Assembly: GCA_965224705.1 (NCBI GenBank)
Contig: OZ245056.1
Coordinates: 1,888,001 to 1,952,000, forward strand
Reading direction: 5' to 3'
Source: Spirochaetaceae bacterium
GTDB lineage: Bacteria > Spirochaetota > Spirochaetia > DSM-2461
DNA length: 64,000 nt
In this document: positions 35,851-60,677 of the stretch, piece by piece
How the letters are laid out: every line of letters begins with the position of its first letter
How positions within the stretch are numbered: the first letter of the stretch is position 1
Program-made: the position numbers and the translations under genes
The notes under the pieces: model-generated
Told to the model about the DNA's origin: nothing
Database searches by the model: none
The model's input: the letters and a program-made list of their open reading frames with translations, nothing else

Positions 35851-36002
35851 GGGCACCTCTAAAAAACACTCATTCCGTTTCTGGCTTGATCCTTACCACT
35901 GCGCTGCCAGAATGCTCACGCAGCTACGCTCCGCTTCTGCCGCCTTGTATCAGTGAGAAATCTCTGTGTCAGATTCCGAAAGAGGGTTTTTTAGAGGCGC
36001 CT
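35851..36002. mobile_element. MITE family A (152 bp)
   Basis: TIRs GGGCACCTCTAAAAAA / TTTTTTAGAGGCGCCT; TAAT on both flanks (4-bp TSD); homologous to 54710-55545. Confidence 0.85.
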
Positions 36003-40127: not shown

Positions 40128-40296
40128 CTAGGAGCCTGTCGGATTTACGTCTCACGGCTCGATTTTTGCCCTTTTTCCCTGCTGCTGCGTTGCCAAAATA
40201 CTCACGTAGCCCAGCTACGCTCCGTTTTTGTCGCCTTGCATCAGGAAAAAATCATCAAAAATCGCCTCGAAGCCTTAAAATCCGACAGACTCCTAG
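40128..40296. mobile_element. MITE family B (IS5-like ends)
   Basis: Inverted ends CTAGGAGCCTGTCGGATTT / AAATCCGACAGACTCCTAG; internal core shared with family A. Confidence 0.85.
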
Positions 40297-49012: not shown

Positions 49013-49233
49013 GCAATTGCTTTCGGAATTAGTACTGAAAAGAAGGATGTGGTTTCCTCCCCGGGCTGATCGCTCACATCAATTGACAACAGTTGACACG
49101 GAAATCCTCCATTTTCCAGGTACCAGTTCTGACCGTTACTGACACAGCCTCAGTTTTGGATTGTCGGCGGGATACCATAACTGAAAGTGCCGCCTTGCCT
49201 TGCGTCCAGAACCAGGCTAAACTGAAAGTCATC

Positions 49234-50997
49234 GTGAAAAAGAAACTGGAACAGGGCATTACCGATTTCAAGGAATTCATCAGTGAAAGCTGCTATTTTG
49301 TCGATAAAACCCGTCTCATAGCGCACCTCATCGACCATCCCAGCAAAGTGCATCTCATCACCCGTCCCCGGCGCTTCGGCAAAACCCTGAACCTGAGCAT
49401 GATCCGCTACTTCTTTGAGGCCCCCCCACCGGGCGGAGATAGTGACGGCGTGCCGCCCAATGCCGCCCTGTTTGACGACATGTCCATCGCGGAACATCCC
49501 CGGTGCCGCGAATACATGGGGCAGTATCCGGTGATTGTGCTAAGTTTCAAGGATGCCAAGGGGGCCTCGCATACGGAGTGCATGGAAATCATCAGGGATA
49601 TGCTCTCCGCGGAATATCAACGACATGAATACTTGCAAAACTGTGGAGTACTGCGCGAAGCTGATAAAGAGTTGTTTGTCAAAATATCGAATAGAAAAGG
49701 TACGGATCAGGACTGCGCGCAATCGATAAAACATCTTTCCTCCTGGCTGAAGCGCGCCTACAACCAACCGGTTTACATCCTGCTGGACGAGTACGACACC
49801 CCCCTGCATGCCGCCTACACCGGCAGCTTCTACGATGAAATGATTGCCTTCATCCGCAGCTTCATGGTGCAGACCTTCAAGGACAACCCCAATTTGAAGC
49901 AGGCGGTGGTCATCGGGATACTGAAGGTGGCGCAGGAGAGCATCTTCAGCGACTTCAACAATCCGGCGGTGTCCACCTTGCTTGATCCCGACATGGAGGA
50001 CTGTTTTGGCTTCACGGAAGCCGAAGTAGAGACCATGGCCGCCCACTTCGACATGGAAGACCGGATGGACGGCATCCGGGAGTGGTACAACGGCTACATC
50101 TTCGGGGGGGACACGGTCATCTACAACCCCTGGAGCATCGTCAATTACCTGCGAAAGCCTTCCGCCGGACTGCGCCCCTACTGGGTGCACACCAGCGACA
50201 ACAGACTCATCAAGAAAGTACTGCATCTGGATAAGAGGAACAGCCGGGAAGTCGTTGAAAAACTGATCCGGGGAGAGGAAGTCAGGCGGGAGGTGGCGCT
50301 CAACATTGCCTATCCGCAGATAGAAAGAAACACGGATGCCGTGTGGAGCTTTCTGCTCCACGGAGGCTATCTTAAGGCCGACGAGCGGCAGCAGCTCCAC
50401 ACCTTCATCACCTACCGGCTTGCCATCCCCAATCTGGAAGTGAAGGTGGTCTACGAAAAGGTTATCCGGGACTGGCTGGAGGAGGACGTGGAGATAAGCG
50501 ATTCCTTTCAGTCCTTCATCCGCGGCATTCGCGAGGGAGATACCGGTCTGATCGAAGAGGGACTCGGAGACATCCTCTTCGGCCTCGCCAGTTATCACGA
50601 TACGGCATCGCGGGACAGGAGGGAGGAAAGGAAACGGACGGAGGGCTTCTATCACGGTCTGGTGCTGGGTATGCTGGCCTATCTGGGCGGTGAATACATG
50701 GTGGAGAGCAACCGCGAATGCGGCATGGGGCGCCCCGACATCGTCTTGATCCGGCGCGATACCGGCTCCGGGCGGCCCGGCAGGGTTCTTCTCTTTGAGT
50801 TCAAGCGGGAGGATGCTGGTGGAACGACGCCCCTGGAGCAGTTGGCGGGGGAGGCGTATTGCCAGGCGGAGCAAAAATACCTTGAGGGCCTGAGGAAGAA
50901 GTGGGAGCCGGGGGAAATCCTTGTTCTGGGGGTGGGCTTTCGGGGCAGGGAACTGGCACTGGAGGGGGGAGCGAATCTCCCCGGTTTTGAGTCATGA
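49234..50997 (+). CDS. AAA-ATPase-like + PD-(D/E)xK nuclease protein, copy 1
   Basis: GITDF, FVDKT, RPRRFGKTLNLSM, LDEYD, WYNGY, YNPWS, EGFYHG, SNRE.G.GRPDI..FEFK; GTG start. Confidence 0.9.
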   Translation: MKKKLEQGITDFKEFISESCYFVDKTRLIAHLIDHPSKVHLITRPRRFGKTLNLSMIRYFFEAPPPGGDSDGVPPNAALFDDMSIAEHPRCREYMGQYPVIVLSFKDAKGASHTECMEIIRDMLSAEYQRHEYLQNCGVLREADKELFVKISNRKGTDQDCAQSIKHLSSWLKRAYNQPVYILLDEYDTPLHAAYTGSFYDEMIAFIRSFMVQTFKDNPNLKQAVVIGILKVAQESIFSDFNNPAVSTLLDPDMEDCFGFTEAEVETMAAHFDMEDRMDGIREWYNGYIFGGDTVIYNPWSIVNYLRKPSAGLRPYWVHTSDNRLIKKVLHLDKRNSREVVEKLIRGEEVRREVALNIAYPQIERNTDAVWSFLLHGGYLKADERQQLHTFITYRLAIPNLEVKVVYEKVIRDWLEEDVEISDSFQSFIRGIREGDTGLIEEGLGDILFGLASYHDTASRDRREERKRTEGFYHGLVLGMLAYLGGEYMVESNRECGMGRPDIVLIRRDTGSGRPGRVLLFEFKREDAGGTTPLEQLAGEAYCQAEQKYLEGLRKKWEPGEILVLGVGFRGRELALEGGANLPGFES

Positions 50998-51078
50998 GTT
51001 TTAGAGTGTCGGCGGGATACCATAACTGAAAGTGCCGCCTTGCCTTGCGTCCAGAACCAGGCTAAACTAAAAGTCATC

Positions 51079-52842
51079 GTGAAAAAGAATCTGACTCAGG
51101 GCATCACCGATTTCAAGAAATTCATCGACAATGATTGCTACTTTGTCGATAAAACTCATCTCATTGGGCATCTTATCAATGACCCCAGTGAGGTACACCT
51201 GATCACCCGCCCCCGGCGCTTCGGCAAAACCCTGAACCTGAGCATGATCCGCTACTTCTTCGAGGCCCTCCCACCGGGCGGAGATAGCAGCGATCCACCA
51301 CCCAATGAACCCTTGTTCAATGGTATGTCCATCGCGGAACATCCCCAATACCGCGAATACATGGGGAAATACCCTGTGATATACTTAAGTTTCAAGGACG
51401 TGAAAAAATCGACATATCAAGATTGCATGACTCTTATCAGGAACATGCTCTCTGCGGAATATCAACGGCATGAGTATTTACAAGATTGTGGTGTCTTGAA
51501 TGACAGAGAACGGGTACAATTTGAGAAAATATTGTGCAATAAGGGCAGCGATCAGGATTGCGAACAATCCATAGCCTTTCTGTCTATATGGCTCAAACGC
51601 GCCTACAACCAACCGGTCTACATCCTGCTGGACGAGTACGACACCTCCCTGCATGCCGCCTACACCGGCAGCTTCTACGATGAAATGATTGCCTTCATCC
51701 GCAGCTTCATGGTGCAGACCTTCAAGGACAACCCCAATTTGAAGCAGGCGGTGGTCATCGGGATACTGAAGGTGGCCCAGGAGAGCATCTTCAGCGACTT
51801 CAACAATCCGGCGGTGTCCACCTTGCTCGATCCCGAAATGGAGGACTGTTTTGGCTTCACGGAAGCCGAAGTAGAGACCATGGCCGCCCACTTCGACATG
51901 GAAAACAGGATGGACGGCATCCGGGAGTGGTACAACGGCTACATCTTTGGCGGAGACACGGTCATCTACAATCCCTGGAGCATCGTCAATTACCTGCGAA
52001 AGCCTTCCGCCGGACTGCGCCCCTACTGGGTGCACACCAGCGACAACAGACTCATCAAGAAAGTACTGCATCTGGATAAGAGGAACAGCCGGGAAGTTAT
52101 TGAGAAACTGATCCGGGGAGAGGAGGTCAGGCGGGAGGTGGTGCTCAACATTGCCTATCCGCAGATAGAAAGAAACACGGATGCCGTGTGGAGCTTTCTT
52201 CTCCACGGAGGCTATCTCAAGGCTGACGAGCGGCAGCAGATCCACACCTTCATCACCTACCGGCTTGCCATCCCCAATCTGGAAGTGAAGGTGGTCTACG
52301 AAAAGGTTGTCCGCGACTGGCTGGAGGAGGACGTGGAGATAAGCGATTCCTTTCAGTCCTTCATCCGCGGCATTCGCGAGGGAGATACCGGTCTGATTGA
52401 AGAGGGTCTCGGAGACATCCTCTTCGGCCTTGCCAGCTATCACGATACGGCATCACGAGGCAGGAGGGAGGAAAGGAAACGGACGGAGGGCTTCTATCAC
52501 GGTCTGGTGCTGGGAATGCTGGCCTACCTGGGCGGTGAATACATGGTGGAGAGCAACCGCGAATGCGGCATGGGCCGTCCCGACATCGTCTTGATCCGGC
52601 GCGATACCGGCTCCGGACGGCCTGCCAGGGTTCTTCTCTTTGAGTTCAAACGGGAGGATGCCGGTGGAACAACGCCTCTGGAGCATCTGGCGCGGGAGGC
52701 ATATTGCCAGGCGGAGCAAAAATACCTTGCGGGCCTGAGAAAGAAGTGGCAGCCGGAGGAAATCCTTGTTCTGGGGGTGGGCTTTCGGGGCAGGGAACTG
52801 GCTCTGGAGGGGGGAGGGGAACTCCCCGGTTTTGAGTCGTGA
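51079..52842 (+). CDS. AAA-ATPase-like + PD-(D/E)xK nuclease protein, copy 2
   Basis: Same motifs; near-identical to copy 1 over the C-terminal two-thirds. Confidence 0.9.
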   Translation: MKKNLTQGITDFKKFIDNDCYFVDKTHLIGHLINDPSEVHLITRPRRFGKTLNLSMIRYFFEALPPGGDSSDPPPNEPLFNGMSIAEHPQYREYMGKYPVIYLSFKDVKKSTYQDCMTLIRNMLSAEYQRHEYLQDCGVLNDRERVQFEKILCNKGSDQDCEQSIAFLSIWLKRAYNQPVYILLDEYDTSLHAAYTGSFYDEMIAFIRSFMVQTFKDNPNLKQAVVIGILKVAQESIFSDFNNPAVSTLLDPEMEDCFGFTEAEVETMAAHFDMENRMDGIREWYNGYIFGGDTVIYNPWSIVNYLRKPSAGLRPYWVHTSDNRLIKKVLHLDKRNSREVIEKLIRGEEVRREVVLNIAYPQIERNTDAVWSFLLHGGYLKADERQQIHTFITYRLAIPNLEVKVVYEKVVRDWLEEDVEISDSFQSFIRGIREGDTGLIEEGLGDILFGLASYHDTASRGRREERKRTEGFYHGLVLGMLAYLGGEYMVESNRECGMGRPDIVLIRRDTGSGRPARVLLFEFKREDAGGTTPLEHLAREAYCQAEQKYLAGLRKKWQPEEILVLGVGFRGRELALEGGGELPGFES

Positions 52843-54596
52843 GTTTTGTGAAAAAGAAACTGGAACAGGGCATCACCGATTTCAAGAAATTCATCGACAA
52901 TGATTGTTACTTTGTCGATAAAACTCGTCTTATCGCATATCTTATTGACCATCCCAGCGAGGTGCATCTCATCACCCGCCCCCGGCGCTTCGGCAAAACC
53001 CTGAACCTAAGCATGATCCGCTACTTCTTCGAGGCCCCGCCACCGGGCGGAGATAGCAGCGATCCACCACCCAATGCGCCTTTGTTCAATGGCATGTCCA
53101 TCGCGGAACATCCCCAATACCGTGAATACATGGGGCAGTATCCGGTGATTGCGCTAAGTTTCAAGGATGCCAAGGGGGCCTCGCATACGGAGTGCATGGA
53201 AGTCATCAGGGAAATGCTGTCGGCGGAATATCAACGACATGAATACCTGCAAAACTGTGAAGTGCTGCACGAAGCCGATAAAGAGTTGTTTTTTAACATA
53301 TCGAATAGAAAAGGCACGGATCAGGACTGTGCGCAATCGATAAAACATCTCTCCTCCTGGCTCAAGCGCGCTTACAACCAACCGGTCTACATCCTTCTGG
53401 ACGAGTACGACACCCCGCTGCACGCCGCCTACACCGAAAACTTCTACGATGAAATGATCGCCTTCATCCGCAGCTTCATGGGGCAGAGCTTCAAGGACAA
53501 CCCCAATTTGAAACAGGCGGTGGTCATCGGGATACTGAAAGTGGCACAGGAAAGCATCTTCAGCGACTTCAACAATCCGGCAGTGTCCACCGTGCTGAAT
53601 GATTCCATGAAGGATTGTTTTGGTTTCACCGAGGCGGAGGTGGAGGCCATGGCCTCCCATTTCGGGCAGGAATCCCGGCTGGACGGCATAAGGGAGTGGT
53701 ACAACGGCTACATCTTCGGCGGCGACACGGTCATCTACAATCCCTGGAGTCTCGTGAGCTATTTCAGAAACATCAAGGACGGGCTTCTGCCCTACTGGGT
53801 GCACACCAGCGATAACAAACTGGTAAAAGAAGTGCTGCATCTGGACAGAAGGAACAGCAGGGAAGTCGTTGAGAAACTGATCCGGGGAGAGGAAGTCAGG
53901 CGGGAGGTGGTGCTCAACATTGCCTATCCGCAGATAGAAAGAAACACGGATGCCGTGTGGAGCTTTCTGCTCCACGGAGGCTATCTCAAGGCTGACGAGC
54001 GGCAGCAGCTCCACACCTTCATCACCTACCGGCTTGCCATCCCCAATCTGGAAGTGAAGGTGGTCTACGAAAAGGTTGTCCGGGACTGGCTGGAGGAGGA
54101 CGTGGAGATAAGCGATTCCTTTCAGTCCTTCATTCGCGGCATTCGCGAGGGAGATACCGGACTGATCGAAGAGGGACTCGGAAACATCCTCTTCGGCCTT
54201 GCCAGTTATCACGATACGGCATCGCGGGGCAGAAGGGAGGAAAGGAAACGGACGGAGGGCTTCTATCACGGCCTAGTGCTGGGAATGCTGGCCTACCTGG
54301 GCGGTGAATACATGGTGGAGAGCAACCGCGAATGCGGCATGGGCCGTCCCGACATTGTCTTGATCCGCCGCGATACCGGCTCCGGTCGGCCCACCAGGGT
54401 TCTTCTCTTTGAGTTCAAGAGGGAGGATGCCGGTGGAACAACGCCTCTGGAGCAGCTGGCACGGGAGGCGTATTGCCAGGCGGAGCAAAAATACCTTGAG
54501 GGCCTGAGGAAGAAGTGGCAGCCGGGGGAAATCCTTGTTCTGGGGGTGGGCTTTCGAGGCAGGGAACTGGCTCTGGAAACAGGCCGTGATGAATGA
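52839..54596 (+). CDS. AAA-ATPase-like + PD-(D/E)xK nuclease protein, copy 3
   Basis: Same motifs; GTGA overlap with the copy 2 stop. Confidence 0.9.
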   Translation: MSFVKKKLEQGITDFKKFIDNDCYFVDKTRLIAYLIDHPSEVHLITRPRRFGKTLNLSMIRYFFEAPPPGGDSSDPPPNAPLFNGMSIAEHPQYREYMGQYPVIALSFKDAKGASHTECMEVIREMLSAEYQRHEYLQNCEVLHEADKELFFNISNRKGTDQDCAQSIKHLSSWLKRAYNQPVYILLDEYDTPLHAAYTENFYDEMIAFIRSFMGQSFKDNPNLKQAVVIGILKVAQESIFSDFNNPAVSTVLNDSMKDCFGFTEAEVEAMASHFGQESRLDGIREWYNGYIFGGDTVIYNPWSLVSYFRNIKDGLLPYWVHTSDNKLVKEVLHLDRRNSREVVEKLIRGEEVRREVVLNIAYPQIERNTDAVWSFLLHGGYLKADERQQLHTFITYRLAIPNLEVKVVYEKVVRDWLEEDVEISDSFQSFIRGIREGDTGLIEEGLGNILFGLASYHDTASRGRREERKRTEGFYHGLVLGMLAYLGGEYMVESNRECGMGRPDIVLIRRDTGSGRPTRVLLFEFKREDAGGTTPLEQLAREAYCQAEQKYLEGLRKKWQPGEILVLGVGFRGRELALETGRDE

Positions 54597-54709
54597 TGAG
54601 GAATGGGCCATGGAAAAGTCTCTGCTTCAACATTAAATCAATATTTGGAAAGGATCTACACCTGGAAACCAGGCTGTAGCAAGCTTCCTGACACGGAATT
54701 TGATTTTGA

Positions 54710-55545
54710 GGGCACCTCTAAAAAACCCGCTTTCGGAATCTGGCGCAGAGATTTTTCACTGATACAAGGCGACAAAAACGGAATGTGCCCGGCATGAACA
54801 ATATCCAGCGGGTGAGAATCCCGCCAAGGCCCTGAAAGGCGGAAATTTGTAGAAAAAGACAAGGGTGTCCGAAGAAAGATAGACAACGCATTGAGAGTAT
54901 GCCTGCTCACCAGATGGAGATTGTCTTTCCCAATGAGGAATCTGAAGGAAGTCTAAGTCAAAATATTCGCCTGAACGAGAGTGAACCTTTGAAAGGCAGT
55001 TATGGAGGATGAGATACCTTCGGCTATTGAAGTCCCATATCCTTTACGTAAAATCCATAATTGTGCAGAAGGCAGGCGGGATATGAAATGGAGATTGGTC
55101 TTACCCGGGGAGGGCCTGTGGAATGGAAACTGTGGAACAGCGCCATAAGATTTCCTAAGCCGTGCAGGGATGCAGGGTAATCTTCCACCGGCAGTCAGAA
55201 GAACCCAGGCCGATCAGACGGGTGGAGATCCCGAAACCGGGAGGAGGAGTGAGACTTCTGGACAACTTCAAGGAGCCCGGCTATGCACAAAGCCTTTCCC
55301 AATCGGTATTTCATTGAAGAACTCGGGCAGTTTATCTATTCAGCCTGAGACTGAAAGAAATTGGACACATGCATGAGGAGCCGTGTACGGACCCGTACGC
55401 ACGGTTCTGTGAGAGGACGGCATCCCTGCTTCCGCAAGGTGCCTCCTAACTCGATGCGTAGCTGGGCTACGTGAGCATTTTGGCAACGCAGTAGCAGTGG
55501 TAAAGATCAAACCAGAAACGGAATGGGTGTTTTTTAGAGGTGCCC
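54710..55545. mobile_element. MITE family A copy interrupted by a group II intron
   Basis: TIRs GGGCACCTCTAAAAAA / TTTTTTAGAGGTGCCC; removing 54783-55455 restores a sequence collinear with the reverse complement of 35851-36002. Confidence 0.88.
54783..55455 (+). mobile_element. Internally deleted (non-autonomous) group IIC intron, 673 nt
   Basis: 5' ATGTGCCCGGCATG; IIC domain I blocks GGGTGAGAATCCCG, CAAGGGTGTCCG, GGAATCTGAAGGAAG, TCTTACCCGGGGAGG; domain V GAGCCGTGTACGGACCCGTACGCACGGTTC (55378-55407); domain VI ending CTCCTAACTCGAT; RT remnants. Confidence 0.9.
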
Positions 55546-55546
55546 T

Positions 55547-55916
55547 TTGTATTCCCGGATGAATTTCCTGGGAGTTCTGGAACAGATGAGTGTGATGGTG
55601 GTATTGCCGTAATTGGCTTCCGGGTTTTCTCTGAGGTAGAGATTTGTGTATATGGAAAGATCGTAAATATCCTGTGCTCTTACGGCATCGCCATATGATT
55701 TGTAGCTGACCAGATTGTACGGCGCGAAATAGTTGAAGATGTCGAATTCTACGCTGGCAGTGTTTTGTTTGATAAGGAGGACATCCAGCCTCTTGGGCTT
55801 TTGAGCATTTCATGTTCCGTTTCAACCAGATATCCGCAAGAGCCGAAAAATTCCCTTGCCTGTCTTTTGAAAAAGGTGTCCAGGGTAATCTGGGCTCTGG
55901 GAAGTGTCTTTTCCAT
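55547..55916 (-). pseudogene. Rpn-like gene copy A, frameshifted and 3'-truncated at the MITE
   Basis: Near-identical to the 5' part of copy E (62029-62829); 1-nt deletion near 55791; homology stops at the MITE end. Confidence 0.85.
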
Positions 55917-56077
55917 CGTTTGCAGGATAGCATGATTCTGAAGACCTATCCATACCGGGTTTTTCAATCAAACAGCGTTGCCGTTCATCACCAGGCCCCG
56001 TGCGAAAGCCCCCCTGCATTTTGAGCTTCCCACCTCCGTTGTCTCAAAAAATGTGAAATTTCCTGAAAACGGCACTA

Positions 56078-57732: not shown

Positions 57733-59702
57733 CCGAAGTTTTTGGCGAAGAAGTTAGTAATTCTCTATCAAAAAAAGATTTACAAATAAATTCTGTGTTG
57801 TTTACTGCTTACACCTCCCTATTCGCATGGGATTGTACTGTACGTTTAGCAACTCAAATACCTTTGTATGAAAAGGATTTAACTCACTTCCCTGCGAGTA
57901 GCAGGGGGCGTTATCCACGGCAGGTCGAATGTCGATGATGGCTACAGCCGAAAGAGAATCAATAAGGGATCGAAAGCTCATCACGGGATATCCTTCTTCG
58001 TTAACTTTATGTTCTGCTTTGTGATTGCCATGAGGTGAACGCAAAGCCTTCCTCACCGGTGAGCTTTGCCTGCTTCTGTCTTGATACTCATCCATAAACA
58101 GCAGAGGTTTGAGTTTTTCCCTCATAGCAAACTCTACGTAATAGGCAAGCAAGCACAGATAAAAGTGCCCTTTAACCCGACTTGCAAGACGATGATGAAT
58201 GGGACGGGCCTGTAGTCCGGCTATTTTCAAGCAGCGAAACACTTCCTCCACTCGTTGAAGATTTTTGTAGTTCTCCACACATTCTGGTGTTTGCATTCTA
58301 TCGCTTTCCACATTGGTACGCAGGATATAAATACCGTCACAGGCCTCTTCCTGTCCGATGGATTCTTCGTTTCGAGAAAACAAAAAGTCATCGTCCCTGA
58401 TCTCTACATTGAAATGCTTGCCCATTTTATACTTTCCAATAATTCGGCCATAGCGTTCGGCAATCTTCACTTTGCCCCGTAAAGCTCTTTTTCCCCTTCT
58501 TGCGGCTTTCTGGATGGCCCATAATTTATCTTCTGCTGCACTCAACAGTTCCCGCCGTTTGTTCCTGCGTTCCTGAGCAAGATAAGGATTGCGGCACACG
58601 ATAAGCCGTTCGCCGGGAAAGTCTTCGCTGTGTATTTCCCATAAATCCGTTTCATCAAAGAGTTCCGGGGTAATACTCTGGGCAGTAACCAATTTCTTGA
58701 CCGCTGGAGCACTCAAGGCTCCAAGCCATCTTATCCAATCCCCATTGTCAAGCATCTCTTCTTTAATGTTTTTGGCTGTAACCATTCCCCGATCACCGAC
58801 AAACACTATTGATTTGCCCAGCTTCCTTAACTTTTCAAGCTGCTCTGCTACGGTAGTGCCGTCACTTCTATTGCCCTTAAATACTTGAGCTCCAACCGGA
58901 ACGCCGTATCGATTTGTCATGACACCTAACTCTATTTGCCGTTTACCCCTTTTCCCGTCCCGGCTATATCCGTATTCGGCAAGTGAACAGTGAGAACCTT
59001 CATACCAAAAGGAACTCAAGTCGTACAGCAAGATCGTATCATCCTTGAGATGACGGTTTCTTAATCGCTGTTCAATACTTCCCCACTGCTCTTCCAGATT
59101 ATCAAGTGCTCCGTAAAGATCAGCAGGCTTGACTTCTCCCAGACCAAGAATGCGGTTCAAAGAGCTATGTGTATTCTTTTCATCAAGAGCATAAGCGGTC
59201 GCAAGCTTTGATGCAGGGTGAATAATCCTCTGGGCGATCATTGCCTTAATCAGCATCAGGTTATCAGGAGACACACCTTTAAGAAGACTCTCTATGTTGA
59301 GTTGTTTCATGGTTTGAATGATGGCCAGAGAGTGTCCGTGGGCGTAGGATCGTTCAATCGTGAACATTTTATCCGGAGAGATAATTCTTGCTCCCTTAAG
59401 CAGAGCATGAAATCCTTCTCTAATTTCTGCCGGCCAATCAGTGAGATTGGCTATTGTTGTAGTCGTGGGTTTTCCATTGACGCGGGTTGATTTTCGAAGG
59501 AGCCAGCAGCCTGGAGAGTTTCTATTTTTGATATACTGGATATACATGTGCTGTATTATAGCATGTATTATTTATATTTCAAGCTATTAGTAATAGAAAA
59601 ACCCGTATTACATGCGTACATTTTCCGTCTTTTTCAGTGGTATACTCTTGTAACTTTTTTTCAGAAAAAGAAATTAACTGGATTTTGCGCCAAAAACTTC
59701 GG
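57733..59702 (-). mobile_element. IS1634-family insertion sequence (1970 bp)
   Basis: Perfect 15-bp TIR CCGAAGTTTTTGGCG; 6-bp TSD CTTAGA at 57727-57732 and 59703-59708. Confidence 0.92.
57802..59547 (-). CDS. IS1634-family DDE transposase
   Basis: PASKLAT, LYDLSS.WYEG, GYSRDGK, VGDRGM, DGIYILRT, Y..L..VE..FR.LK. Confidence 0.92.
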   Translation of the reverse strand: MYIQYIKNRNSPGCWLLRKSTRVNGKPTTTTIANLTDWPAEIREGFHALLKGARIISPDKMFTIERSYAHGHSLAIIQTMKQLNIESLLKGVSPDNLMLIKAMIAQRIIHPASKLATAYALDEKNTHSSLNRILGLGEVKPADLYGALDNLEEQWGSIEQRLRNRHLKDDTILLYDLSSFWYEGSHCSLAEYGYSRDGKRGKRQIELGVMTNRYGVPVGAQVFKGNRSDGTTVAEQLEKLRKLGKSIVFVGDRGMVTAKNIKEEMLDNGDWIRWLGALSAPAVKKLVTAQSITPELFDETDLWEIHSEDFPGERLIVCRNPYLAQERRNKRRELLSAAEDKLWAIQKAARRGKRALRGKVKIAERYGRIIGKYKMGKHFNVEIRDDDFLFSRNEESIGQEEACDGIYILRTNVESDRMQTPECVENYKNLQRVEEVFRCLKIAGLQARPIHHRLASRVKGHFYLCLLAYYVEFAMREKLKPLLFMDEYQDRSRQSSPVRKALRSPHGNHKAEHKVNEEGYPVMSFRSLIDSLSAVAIIDIRPAVDNAPCYSQGSELNPFHTKVFELLNVQYNPMRIGRCKQ

Positions 59703-59703
59703 C

Positions 59704-59892
59704 TTAGAGCTTCTTGATTTCCGCTTCGCTCAGGCCGGTGGCCTTGATGATGAGTTTCATATCGGCTCCGGCAGCCTTGAAGTTTTTGGCTGTTTGCGTT
59801 TTGCCTTTTTCCATACCTTTTTCCATACCATCATCCCAGGCCTTTTCAAGCTGAGGTCTCATGAGTTCGGTTACATCGGCAACGGGTACCAT
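59704..59892 (-). CDS. Predicted intragenic in-frame small protein (62 aa) of copy C
   Basis: AAGGAGG-N5-ATG with an upstream TTGACA-N16-TATAAT. Confidence 0.65.
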   Translation of the reverse strand: MVPVADVTELMRPQLEKAWDDGMEKGMEKGKTQTAKNFKAAGADMKLIIKATGLSEAEIKKL

Positions 59893-60516
59893 GTTATCCT
59901 CCTTGCCCTCAAAGATTGATATTCTCATTATAGTCCCCTTAAGCAGCTTGTCAACAATCTGCCTGGGAAAACCGGACTCCTTGATTTCATCCTGGCCGGA
60001 TAAACGGTCAATATTCCGACAGAATTCGGATAGAAACACACCATCTGGCCCCGATAGCCGGATGATTTCTATGTTGATGATGTGAATTCTGTACATTCCA
60101 TAGTCGCCGATGAAGTGACCGGGACATGTTTCGGTGAAAGACCCTTTATATTCCCGGATGAATTTTCTGGGGGTTCTGGAACAGATTAACGTGATGGTGG
60201 TATTGCCGTAATTGGCATCCGGGTTTTCTCTGAGGTAGAGATTTGTGTATATGGAGAGGTCGTAGATATCCTGTGCTCTTACGGCATCGCCGTACGATTT
60301 GTAGCTGACCAGATTGTACGGCGCGAAATAGTTGAAGATATCAAATTCTACGCTGGCGGTGTTTTGCTTGATAAGGAGGACATCCAGTTTTTTCGGGTTT
60401 TTGAGCATTTCATGTTCCGTTTCAACCAGATATCCGCAGGAGCCAAAAAATTCCCTTGCCTGTCTTTTGAAAAAGGTGTCCAGGGTAATCTGGGCTCTGG
60501 GGAGTGTCTTTTCCAT
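59704..60516 (-). CDS. Rpn-like PD-(D/E)xK-family protein, copy C (intact)
   Basis: PKKLDVLLIK...NLVSYKS; C-terminal GMEKG..TAKNFK..G.D...IIKATGLS..EI..L typical of Rpn/YhgA-like tails; ATG 60516 (TTG 60567 also possible). Confidence 0.75.
   Translation of the reverse strand: MEKTLPRAQITLDTFFKRQAREFFGSCGYLVETEHEMLKNPKKLDVLLIKQNTASVEFDIFNYFAPYNLVSYKSYGDAVRAQDIYDLSIYTNLYLRENPDANYGNTTITLICSRTPRKFIREYKGSFTETCPGHFIGDYGMYRIHIINIEIIRLSGPDGVFLSEFCRNIDRLSGQDEIKESGFPRQIVDKLLKGTIMRISIFEGKEDNMVPVADVTELMRPQLEKAWDDGMEKGMEKGKTQTAKNFKAAGADMKLIIKATGLSEAEIKKL
59927..59954 (-). promoter_or_regulatory. Intragenic consensus sigma70 promoter, copy C (also at 61083-61110 and 62240-62267)
   Basis: TTGACA AGCTGCTTAAGGGGAC TATAAT. 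Confidence 0.7.
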
Positions 60517-60677
60517 CGTTGACAGGATAACATGATTTCGAAGACCTATCCATACCGGATTTTTCAATCATACAGCGTTGCCGTTCATCACCAGGCCCCG
60601 CATGAAAGCCCCCCTGCATTTTGAGCTTCCCACCTCCGTTGTCTCAAAAAATGTGAAATTTCCTGAAAACGGCACTA

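Follow-up and report, generated by a model that had tools for sequence, protein, structure and literature searches.

Full-length siblings and insertion sites of a 673-nt group II intron copy in the core of a spirochaete MITE

The window, the insert and its host element

The window analysed in this work, a stretch of 64 kb of the genome designated G000 (G000:C1:1888001-1952000), contains at 49093-54596 on the plus strand three tandem, near-identical AAA-ATPase / PD-(D/E)XK genes, the third of which matches PF09820 and PF08011. On the minus strand lie tandem Rpn-like genes (55546-55967 and 59704-60567, with more copies to about 62900; the TIGR01784 matches are weak and below the cut-off) and an IS1634-family transposase gene with an open frame (57802-59547). 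Between the ATPase genes and the Rpn-like genes there is a MITE divided by an insert of 673 nt (Table 1). The Rpn-like gene that adjoins this MITE is truncated at the MITE end, and the remainder of it is absent from the other side. A 30-nt sequence ending in AAGCTTCCTGACAC at 54665-54694, possibly the end of another repeat, recurs at at least 8 other places, some of them beside tRNA-like sequence. The cumulative GC skew of the genome is ragged. The best-matching named public runs are mollusc metagenomes, from which we infer that the host is probably an animal-associated spirochaete.

The insert splits the sequence CAAAAACGGA|GCGTAGCTGGG without target duplication, and its limits, its 5' ATGTG and its 3' CTCGAT are exactly those given by an earlier, sequence-only reading of this DNA. 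Rfam group II models, a check which that reading had proposed, recognised the insert in two parts, group-II-D1D4-3 at 54924-55099 (86.6 bits, gathering threshold 32) and Intron_gpII at 55376-55455 (42.5 bits, gathering threshold 40); the match to RF02001 covers all 170 positions. The loop TTCG pairs with the exon end CGGA, one of the pairs being G-U, as had been claimed, and the 32-nt domain V is in register with that of Oceanobacillus and has the distal stem, shorter by 2 bp, of group IIC.

The host element belongs to family 1 (ends GGGCACCTCTAAAAA), which has the features of a MITE in that it lacks an ORF, is bounded by terminal inverted repeats and is repeated, with about 10 near-full copies and 4-bp duplications in several of them. 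The window copy is without such a duplication; its outer flanks are mismatched (TTGA / TTTG), and a truncated Rpn-like gene is present at the right only. No transposase for this family was found between paired ends in G000. The two empty sites that the sequence-only reading had located, one intact and one degenerate, are both there, the intact one within a MITE of another family (family 2). A complete IS1182 element with the same ends as family 2 is present in G000 (G000:C1:1526964-1528570, L230); its ends match about 100 family 2 MITEs, and it is likely the mover of these. One folded core (CAAGGCG ... GAG hairpin TGAG ... CAACGC) is common to MITE families with unrelated ends (40132-40292, 35851-36001 and 54710-55545 in the window; L112-L118 in the same-genus genome G001) and occurs in 10 of the 14 genus genomes searched, G000 included. 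The empty core had no match in Rfam at E up to 5, and no description of it was found in a literature search. In the window MITE its hairpin, GCGTAGC-TGG-GCTACGT, begins at +1 of the insertion site, on the 3' side. Genome-wide, G000 has 129 right core halves, 59 preceded by GACAAAAACGGA and 3 by an intron 3' end, and one of the approximately 129 cores carries a whole intron.

Table 1. Coordinates of the insert, its host element and related features (window positions unless a genome is named)
Feature	Position	Strand	Remarks
Left half of host MITE (family 1), 5' exon	54710..54782	+	
Right half of host MITE, 3' exon	55456..55545	+	G55456 is IBS3
Terminal inverted repeats of host MITE	54709-54743 / 55512-55546		35 nt, 83%
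Empty core in family 2 MITE	40132..40292	-	site 40221/40220; IS1182-type ends, CTAG duplication
Empty degenerate family 1 MITE	35851..36001	-	site 35930/35929
Group II intron, apparent relic, 673 nt	54783..55455	+	96-97% identical to full-length siblings over nt 1-425, 94-96% over last 198 aligned nt
IBS1, CGGA	54779..54782	+	pairs with EBS1, one G-U; CGAA in sibling copies
Domain I, IIC type	54783..55108	+	AGGAA bulge, no EBS2 subdomain; Rfam and alignment
EBS1, TTCG, loop positions 3-6	55019..55022	+	column pairs with exon end at positions 1-4 in 28, 29, 28 and 9 of 29 relatives
EBS3, C	55066	+	pairs with G55456; column pairs with first 3'-exon base in 25/32 relatives; A with T in G001
Domain II, intact	55111..55196	+	approximate limits; consensus fold of alignment
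J2/3 linker AGA	55197..55199	+	gamma is A, pairing with last base; gamma-gamma' in 32/33 relatives; AGA or GGA (RGA) in 34/34
Domain III stub, 5' strand only	55200..55207	+	alignment with full-length relatives
RT ORF relic 1	55209..55261	+	sibling nt about 876-928; sibling comparison
RT ORF relic 2, C-terminus and stop	55257..55348	+	sibling comparison
Domain V, 32 nt (IIC length)	55377..55408	+	triad AGC at 55379-55381; Rfam and alignment
Domain VI	55411..55453	+	two mismatches to siblings and extra A beside branch A
Full-length sibling A	G000 1071337-1073373		2,035-2,037 nt class; RT frame with internal stop
Full-length sibling B	G000 1652440-1654474		2,035-2,037 nt class; open 426-codon RT frame
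Full-length sibling C	G000 331775-333809		2,035-2,037 nt class; open 426-codon RT frame
G001 copies with antisense MITE in domain I	G001:C1:462043, 1498693, 1505762, 1524256, 2694447, 3241704, 3285181		
G001 copies with second MITE relic	G001:C1:459975, 572214, 576478, 2387859		
Other sites of the 30-mer ending in AAGCTTCCTGACAC	G000:C1:396520, 1399470, 1984297, 2255882, 2566993		

Origin of the 673-nt form

A BLAST search of the genome revealed three full-length copies (A, B and C), the RT-encoding siblings that the sequence-only reading had suggested looking for, together with copy D, which has an internal deletion, copy E, of which the 3' half is left, and three short fragments. The RT of siblings B and C matches TIGR04416 with 353 bits, and the best PDB match of the sibling RT is the GsI-IIC RT, with 323 bits vs 122 for IIA/IIB proteins. 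The parent element, as represented by B and C, has six RNA domains, a GUGYG start, an AY end and an RT/maturase in domain IV, and is thus a group II intron.

Relative to these siblings, the window copy consists of nt 1-425, a 52-nt RT relic and the last 199 nt, with joints at short microhomologies. The first deletion, of about 450 nt, covers the remainder of domain III, the 5' strand of the domain IV stem and the RT start, its break lying 8 nt into domain III in an alignment with 34 full-length relatives, and in the second, of about 910 nt, a TCTGG microhomology joins RT relics 1 and 2. There are 14 differences from the sibling majority within nt 1-425, and the fold of domains V-VI is weaker than in the siblings (-36.4 vs -44.9 kcal/mol). 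Two points had been regarded as atypical, the first base A and the AGC triad of domain V. Both are present, but the A is a lesion private to the window copy, since all 5 other 5' ends in G000 have G, while AGC is a trait of the whole lineage. Domain III and G1 are needed for efficient group II splicing. The sequence-only reading had taken the insert for a miniature intron. Its small size, however, results from two internal deletions with loss of domain III, so that the six domains are not all intact, and the deletion form is a single copy in G000 and was not seen when looked for in G001. These comparisons of sequence indicate that the window copy arose by deletion from a 2,035-nt RT-encoding intron and survives as a solitary relic, not as a working miniature intron; most probably it can neither splice nor move.

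Public DNA and RNA runs contain a joint from which exactly these 673 nt are missing, but we rejected it as evidence of splicing, because the joined exons are identical to the empty core of other MITE copies. None of the public-run contigs listed spans the deletion joints of the window copy, and the letters read are those of full-length siblings.

Among 60 relatives, the intron is present at length only in G001, whose sister intron is 71-81% identical in pieces. An ORF-less form of 935 nt in that genome (G001:C1:1202573-1203507 and relatives) retains domains I-III and V-VI, with one deletion joint in 14 of the 16 3' ends listed; a search for the RT in G001 found only broken pieces. ORF-less introns have been described as rare and helped in trans (PMC4424553, PMC12584367, PMC8643678), and ORF-less TeI3 of Thermosynechococcus elongatus (PMC2882425) resembles the present case in its ORF deletion, its RT remnants and the full-length siblings alongside. 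TeI3 keeps six domains and is multi-copy, whereas the window copy is single, lacks domain III and is more like the "fragments" of TeI3. The TeI3 pattern of a joint in common at many sites is fitted by the 935-nt form, and on sequence this form makes a stronger candidate than the window copy for a mini-intron mobilised in trans. Two direct-orientation ORF-less introns lie 6.7 kb apart at G001:C1:1195828-1203507, where the 5' flank of the first is a left MITE half and the 3' flank of the second is the right half, as if a 7.7-kb block had entered one MITE by recombination between intron copies.

Affiliation and flanks of the wider lineage

The insert had been assigned to group IIC. IIC introns are defined (PMC1702495) by the absence of EBS2, an AGGAA bulge, an EBS3 as in IIB and an EBS1-IBS1 pairing of 3-4 bp, and also by a domain V distal stem 2 bp shorter, a CGC triad and a 5'-exon terminator or similar stem-loop. 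The lineage is without EBS2 and has the AGGAA bulge, EBS3 and a pairing of 3-4 bp, so the IIC-type domain I and the short EBS1 pairing stand, but not the CGC triad: wherever domain V is readable in the G000 and G001 copies, the triad is AGC. Further members were picked from metagenomes with the exact domain V pattern, which yielded 75 loci, 34 with a 5' end at full-length distance and 71 with a 3' end; as they were selected on a motif containing AGC, they do not constitute a test of the triad. The same pattern had no match besides G000 in 400 genomes of the phylum. The pairings of EBS1, EBS3 and gamma are maintained across relatives (Table 1), that of EBS1 being scored on 29 of the 34 rows (left out were 2 with too little flank and 3 with an intron-like flank end).

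Several features separate these introns from class C (B.h.I1, GsI-IIC, IIC-attC), with which they share, besides domain I, the 32-nt domain V, an endonuclease-less RT and 5' exons that tend to fold. The lineage has an AGC triad and an RGA J2/3, in contrast to CGC and AGC in class C, and its RT has 36-45% identity with those full-length class C RTs that entered the comparison. The inner part of domain III measures 79-91 nt in 6 lineage members vs 14-24 nt in 3 class C loci (those matched by the pattern among 13 tried), and RF01998 matched 2 of 2 class C loci but 0 of 4 lineage loci. In a quick maximum-likelihood tree with SH-aLRT supports and no bootstrap, the lineage RTs formed a clade (99; selection by a common domain V favours such monophyly) that was sister to 16 class C-type rows (92; joint node 98) and not inside them, although a broad definition of class C could include it. 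The 120 best protein matches are all at least 58% identical, a Desulfonema limicola protein among them.

The g6 introns lie outside class C and have a similar RNA, according to Toro and Nisa-Martinez (PMC4244168). D.p.I1 of Desulfotalea psychrophila, a g6 intron, resembles the lineage in its IIC-like RNA, its AGC triad and a long domain III with similar motifs (by eye), but it follows a T-tailed terminator, which the lineage does not. We rejected membership in g6, because the RT is 39% identical to that of D.p.I1 and falls in a separate clade (SH-aLRT 99). A placement with the IEP clusters U1-U3 of Miura et al. (PMC8919778) was examined through three introns labelled "Unclassified", the plasmid ones among 90 of the 221 rows with that label, and all three lie outside the lineage clade. 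Classes E and F were set aside by description: their RNAs are IIB-like with EBS2 (PMC3753933), while the lineage RNA has no EBS2 subdomain. The AGC, long-domain-III introns thus appear, from sequence and phylogeny, to be a little-described sister branch of group IIC. No description of an AGC, long-domain-III, repeat-targeting sister of class C was found in the literature, a weak negative as the coverage was mostly of papers outside subscription.

Known targets of IIC introns are terminators and attC sites, as described in PMC4424553, PMC12584367 and PMC8643678. After short, duplicate and tandem flanks had been dropped, 28 5' flanks and 55 3' flanks of the lineage remained for comparison. None of the 28 5' flanks is a T-tailed terminator, and TTTT is absent from all 28 of their last-30-nt windows vs 15% of windows further out; a T-tract precedes the site in 5 of the 6 class C 5' ends listed. 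Stem-loops are enriched lineage-wide, the 5' flanks folding better than shuffles (-4.2 vs -2.6 kcal/mol, p 0.001). At the MITE core, unlike this trend, there is no hairpin 5' of the site; the 45-nt 5' flank stands at the 64th percentile of background folding, and the hairpin is 3' of the site. A lineage-wide requirement for a hairpin on the 3' side was unsupported, since the 55 3' flanks are no more folded than shuffles (p 0.15).

The motif CGNAG occurs in 13 of the 28 5' flanks vs 6.3 expected from dinucleotide shuffles (p 0.002) and in 9% of windows further upstream, and in 16 of the 55 3' flanks vs 8.5 expected (p 0.004); the code of the G000 intron, CGRA|G, is itself this motif. Its reverse complement, CTNCG, is weakly raised in 5' flanks (5/28, p 0.05) and occurs in 8 of the 55 3' flanks (p 0.10). 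Hairpins with C-GNA-G caps are unusually stable in DNA. In one sub-branch of metagenome loci (L139, L152, L189, L191, L194), several records show insertion at GGAG|CGTAGCG inside palindromic repeats, the same letters as the G000 core within a different element.

Insertion sites in two genomes and their interpretation

In G000, the 5' exons of A, B, C, D and fragment F end in CGAA, which EBS1 TTCG matches perfectly, and only that of the window copy ends in CGGA, so that the CGGA of the core would be a wobble-tolerated second choice. All 7 3' exons start with G. The core position is used at 3 of the 7 3' junctions (window copy, D and E, in three different MITE variants) and at 1 of the 6 5' junctions. 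In copy D the 5' flank is attC-like and the 3' flank is the core, and E is without a 5' side. The 3' junction of sibling B lies at another position within a long MITE variant that has about 35 empty copies, and a contig from another sample has the intron 3' end at a further position of the long MITE. Sibling C has its 3' junction inside a palindrome. The 3' junctions of A and fragment G are in repeats which we take to be attC-like, a label given by eye from their GTTRRRY-type ends. The three full-length copies are therefore all away from the core, with a perfect CGAA match.

The G001 intron, for which 25 5' ends and 20 3'-end matches were found (18 with a readable end; 2 degenerate ones were dropped), has the EBS1 loop CTCT and EBS3 A, and its exons end mostly in GAG. 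Its junctions fall at CGGAG|TGTACA of the MITE core of that genome, which has about 197 empty sites, in 4 of the 25 5' ends and 5 of the 18 3' ends. This core folds like the G000 core (z -2.9) with a different terminal hairpin sequence, and the site is 1 nt away from the G000 position. Only one G001 copy has both flanks at the core, the flanks of the others being shuffled. The 10 exact sites of the G000 type in G001 were not seen at an intron junction.

We favour, with a probability of about 0.7, the explanation that the intron is a generalist, reading a code of 4+1 nt and favouring folded repeats, for which the MITE core is an abundant hotspot, and that the window copy decayed after insertion. 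By analogy with class C, a full-length, endonuclease-less 2,035-nt RT intron would have reverse-spliced into single-stranded DNA at CGGA|G of a MITE core, at a fork and with RT-assisted reading of the DNA stem, the target being read by EBS1 (UUCG, one wobble) and EBS3 (C), and the inserted intron would have been reverse-transcribed by its own RT. Decay in place would have followed, in which two microhomology-type deletions took domain III, the base of domain IV and most of the RT gene, and G1 mutated. The family code would consist of a pairing of 3-4 nt plus 1 nt together with a preference for folded repeat DNA, with MITE cores, attC-like sites and other palindromes as landing sites, though not positions behind T-tailed terminators. 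The core could be a hotspot because it is abundant (>100 copies) and intergenic, folds into a long stem and presents the code in an internal loop immediately beneath the terminal hairpin.

A preference for structure might be unnecessary if the intron reads its 4+1-nt code only, insertions into genes are removed by selection and no other intergenic sequence carries the code as often as the core. Cores indeed account for 67 of 1,474 CGRA|G sites outside crude ORF calls in G000 and for about 197 of 1,479 CGGAG|T sites in G001, and intergenic DNA is palindrome-rich anyway. In G001, cores make up 4 of 6 exons ending in CGGAG vs 13% of such sites (P 0.004), but the significance is lost when genes are discounted by taking only 12-25% of the non-core sites to be tolerated (P 0.46-0.15). 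The enrichment in G000, however, survives the correction: P(>=3 of 7) is 1.5e-4 over all 11,180 CGRA|G sites (184 core by a loose pattern) and 0.003 over the intergenic ones, counts that are small and come from copies that are not independent, two of the three core junctions being fragments without the left MITE half. Furthermore, CGNAG is found in 46% of lineage 5' flanks vs 9% of windows further upstream and the folding of these flanks beats shuffles, which makes a code-only intron unlikely.

The sequence-only reading had proposed a lineage that targets a multi-copy MITE and had expected most copies to share one position in it; a lineage specialised in the core in this way would have a functional ORF-less mini-intron that owes its spread to a sibling RT or to carriage by the MITE. 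Introns that differ in EBS1 and EBS3 do use this core position repeatedly in two genomes, and G001 has its multi-copy ORF-less form with domain III. Most junctions are off the core in both genomes, however, and a whole intron occurs in 1 of about 129 cores, as the single copy without domain III; the full-length G000 copies have their perfect CGAA sites elsewhere, and among the metagenome 3' flanks listed, checked by eye, none is the G000 core. The part of the claim that survives is thus the repeated use of a multi-copy MITE, and the junction tables largely refute specialisation, which we consider very improbable. The converse possibility, a one-off insertion by an intron that otherwise follows ordinary terminators, did not materialise either, as no G000 copy lies behind a T-tailed terminator. 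Self-spreading by MITE carriage received no support, since no two MITE::intron units with matching flanks were found. Homing of introns into IS sequences is already known: RmInt2 sits in the inverted repeats of ISRm17 and RmInt1 in ISRm2011-2, according to PMC4615759. These share with the present lineage the use of a multi-copy mobile element as a harmless landing site, but they are class D introns with a IIB RNA, EBS2 and one dedicated target, in contrast to a short code and many target types. Dedicated homing of the RmInt2 kind, with most copies at one position of one element, was not what we observed.

One could also suppose that each genome had a single original insertion at the core, from which all its core junctions arose as intron and MITE copies recombined or underwent gene conversion with one another. 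Mismatched flanks are common, as in copy D and at the outer ends of the window MITE, and in G001 a stretch of about 80 nt is the same in two of the 3' flanks. Nevertheless, three variants of the host MITE in G000 and at least four in G001 can be told apart by sequence that reaches as far as the junction, and separate events are needed for the two genomes in any case; we give this explanation hardly any weight.

A wider reading of the generalist intron, which is tentative and in our view rather doubtful, is that these introns form a large undescribed lineage between g6 and class C, with AGC and a long domain III, whose RT reads folded single-stranded repeat DNA with GNA-triloop hairpins instead of terminators. 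The stem would span the site at the MITE core, re-coding of EBS1/EBS3 would track diverging cores, and MITEs would insert back into domain I. If this were true, IIC would have acquired its CGC triad and small domain III secondarily, the 3' position of the hairpin at the MITE core would reverse the known IIC geometry, and re-coding would let sister introns follow the same structural position in diverging cores. The window copy itself is ordinary debris, and the lineage is of greater importance. It is IIC that serves as the structural model of group II introns, and it is frequently described as their most primitive form. A sister branch whose triad is the standard AGC, whose domain III is larger and whose targets are not terminators would be a natural comparison for derived IIC traits and for how an RT reads a DNA hairpin, and with the intact copies B and C and their known filled and empty targets both questions are testable.

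Nesting was observed in both directions in the two genomes, with introns lodged in MITE cores and MITEs lodged in domain I of introns. A MITE of the end family of the window host lies antisense inside domain I of the G001 intron (nt about 131-135) with a TAGA duplication, in 7 of the 18 5' ends listed and partially in 2 more; the carrying copies have different flanks, which suggests that this passenger either travelled along with the intron or was spread through conversion. In 4 G001 copies, the relic of another MITE takes the place of part of domain I (nt about 104), and 2 more copies are cut there.
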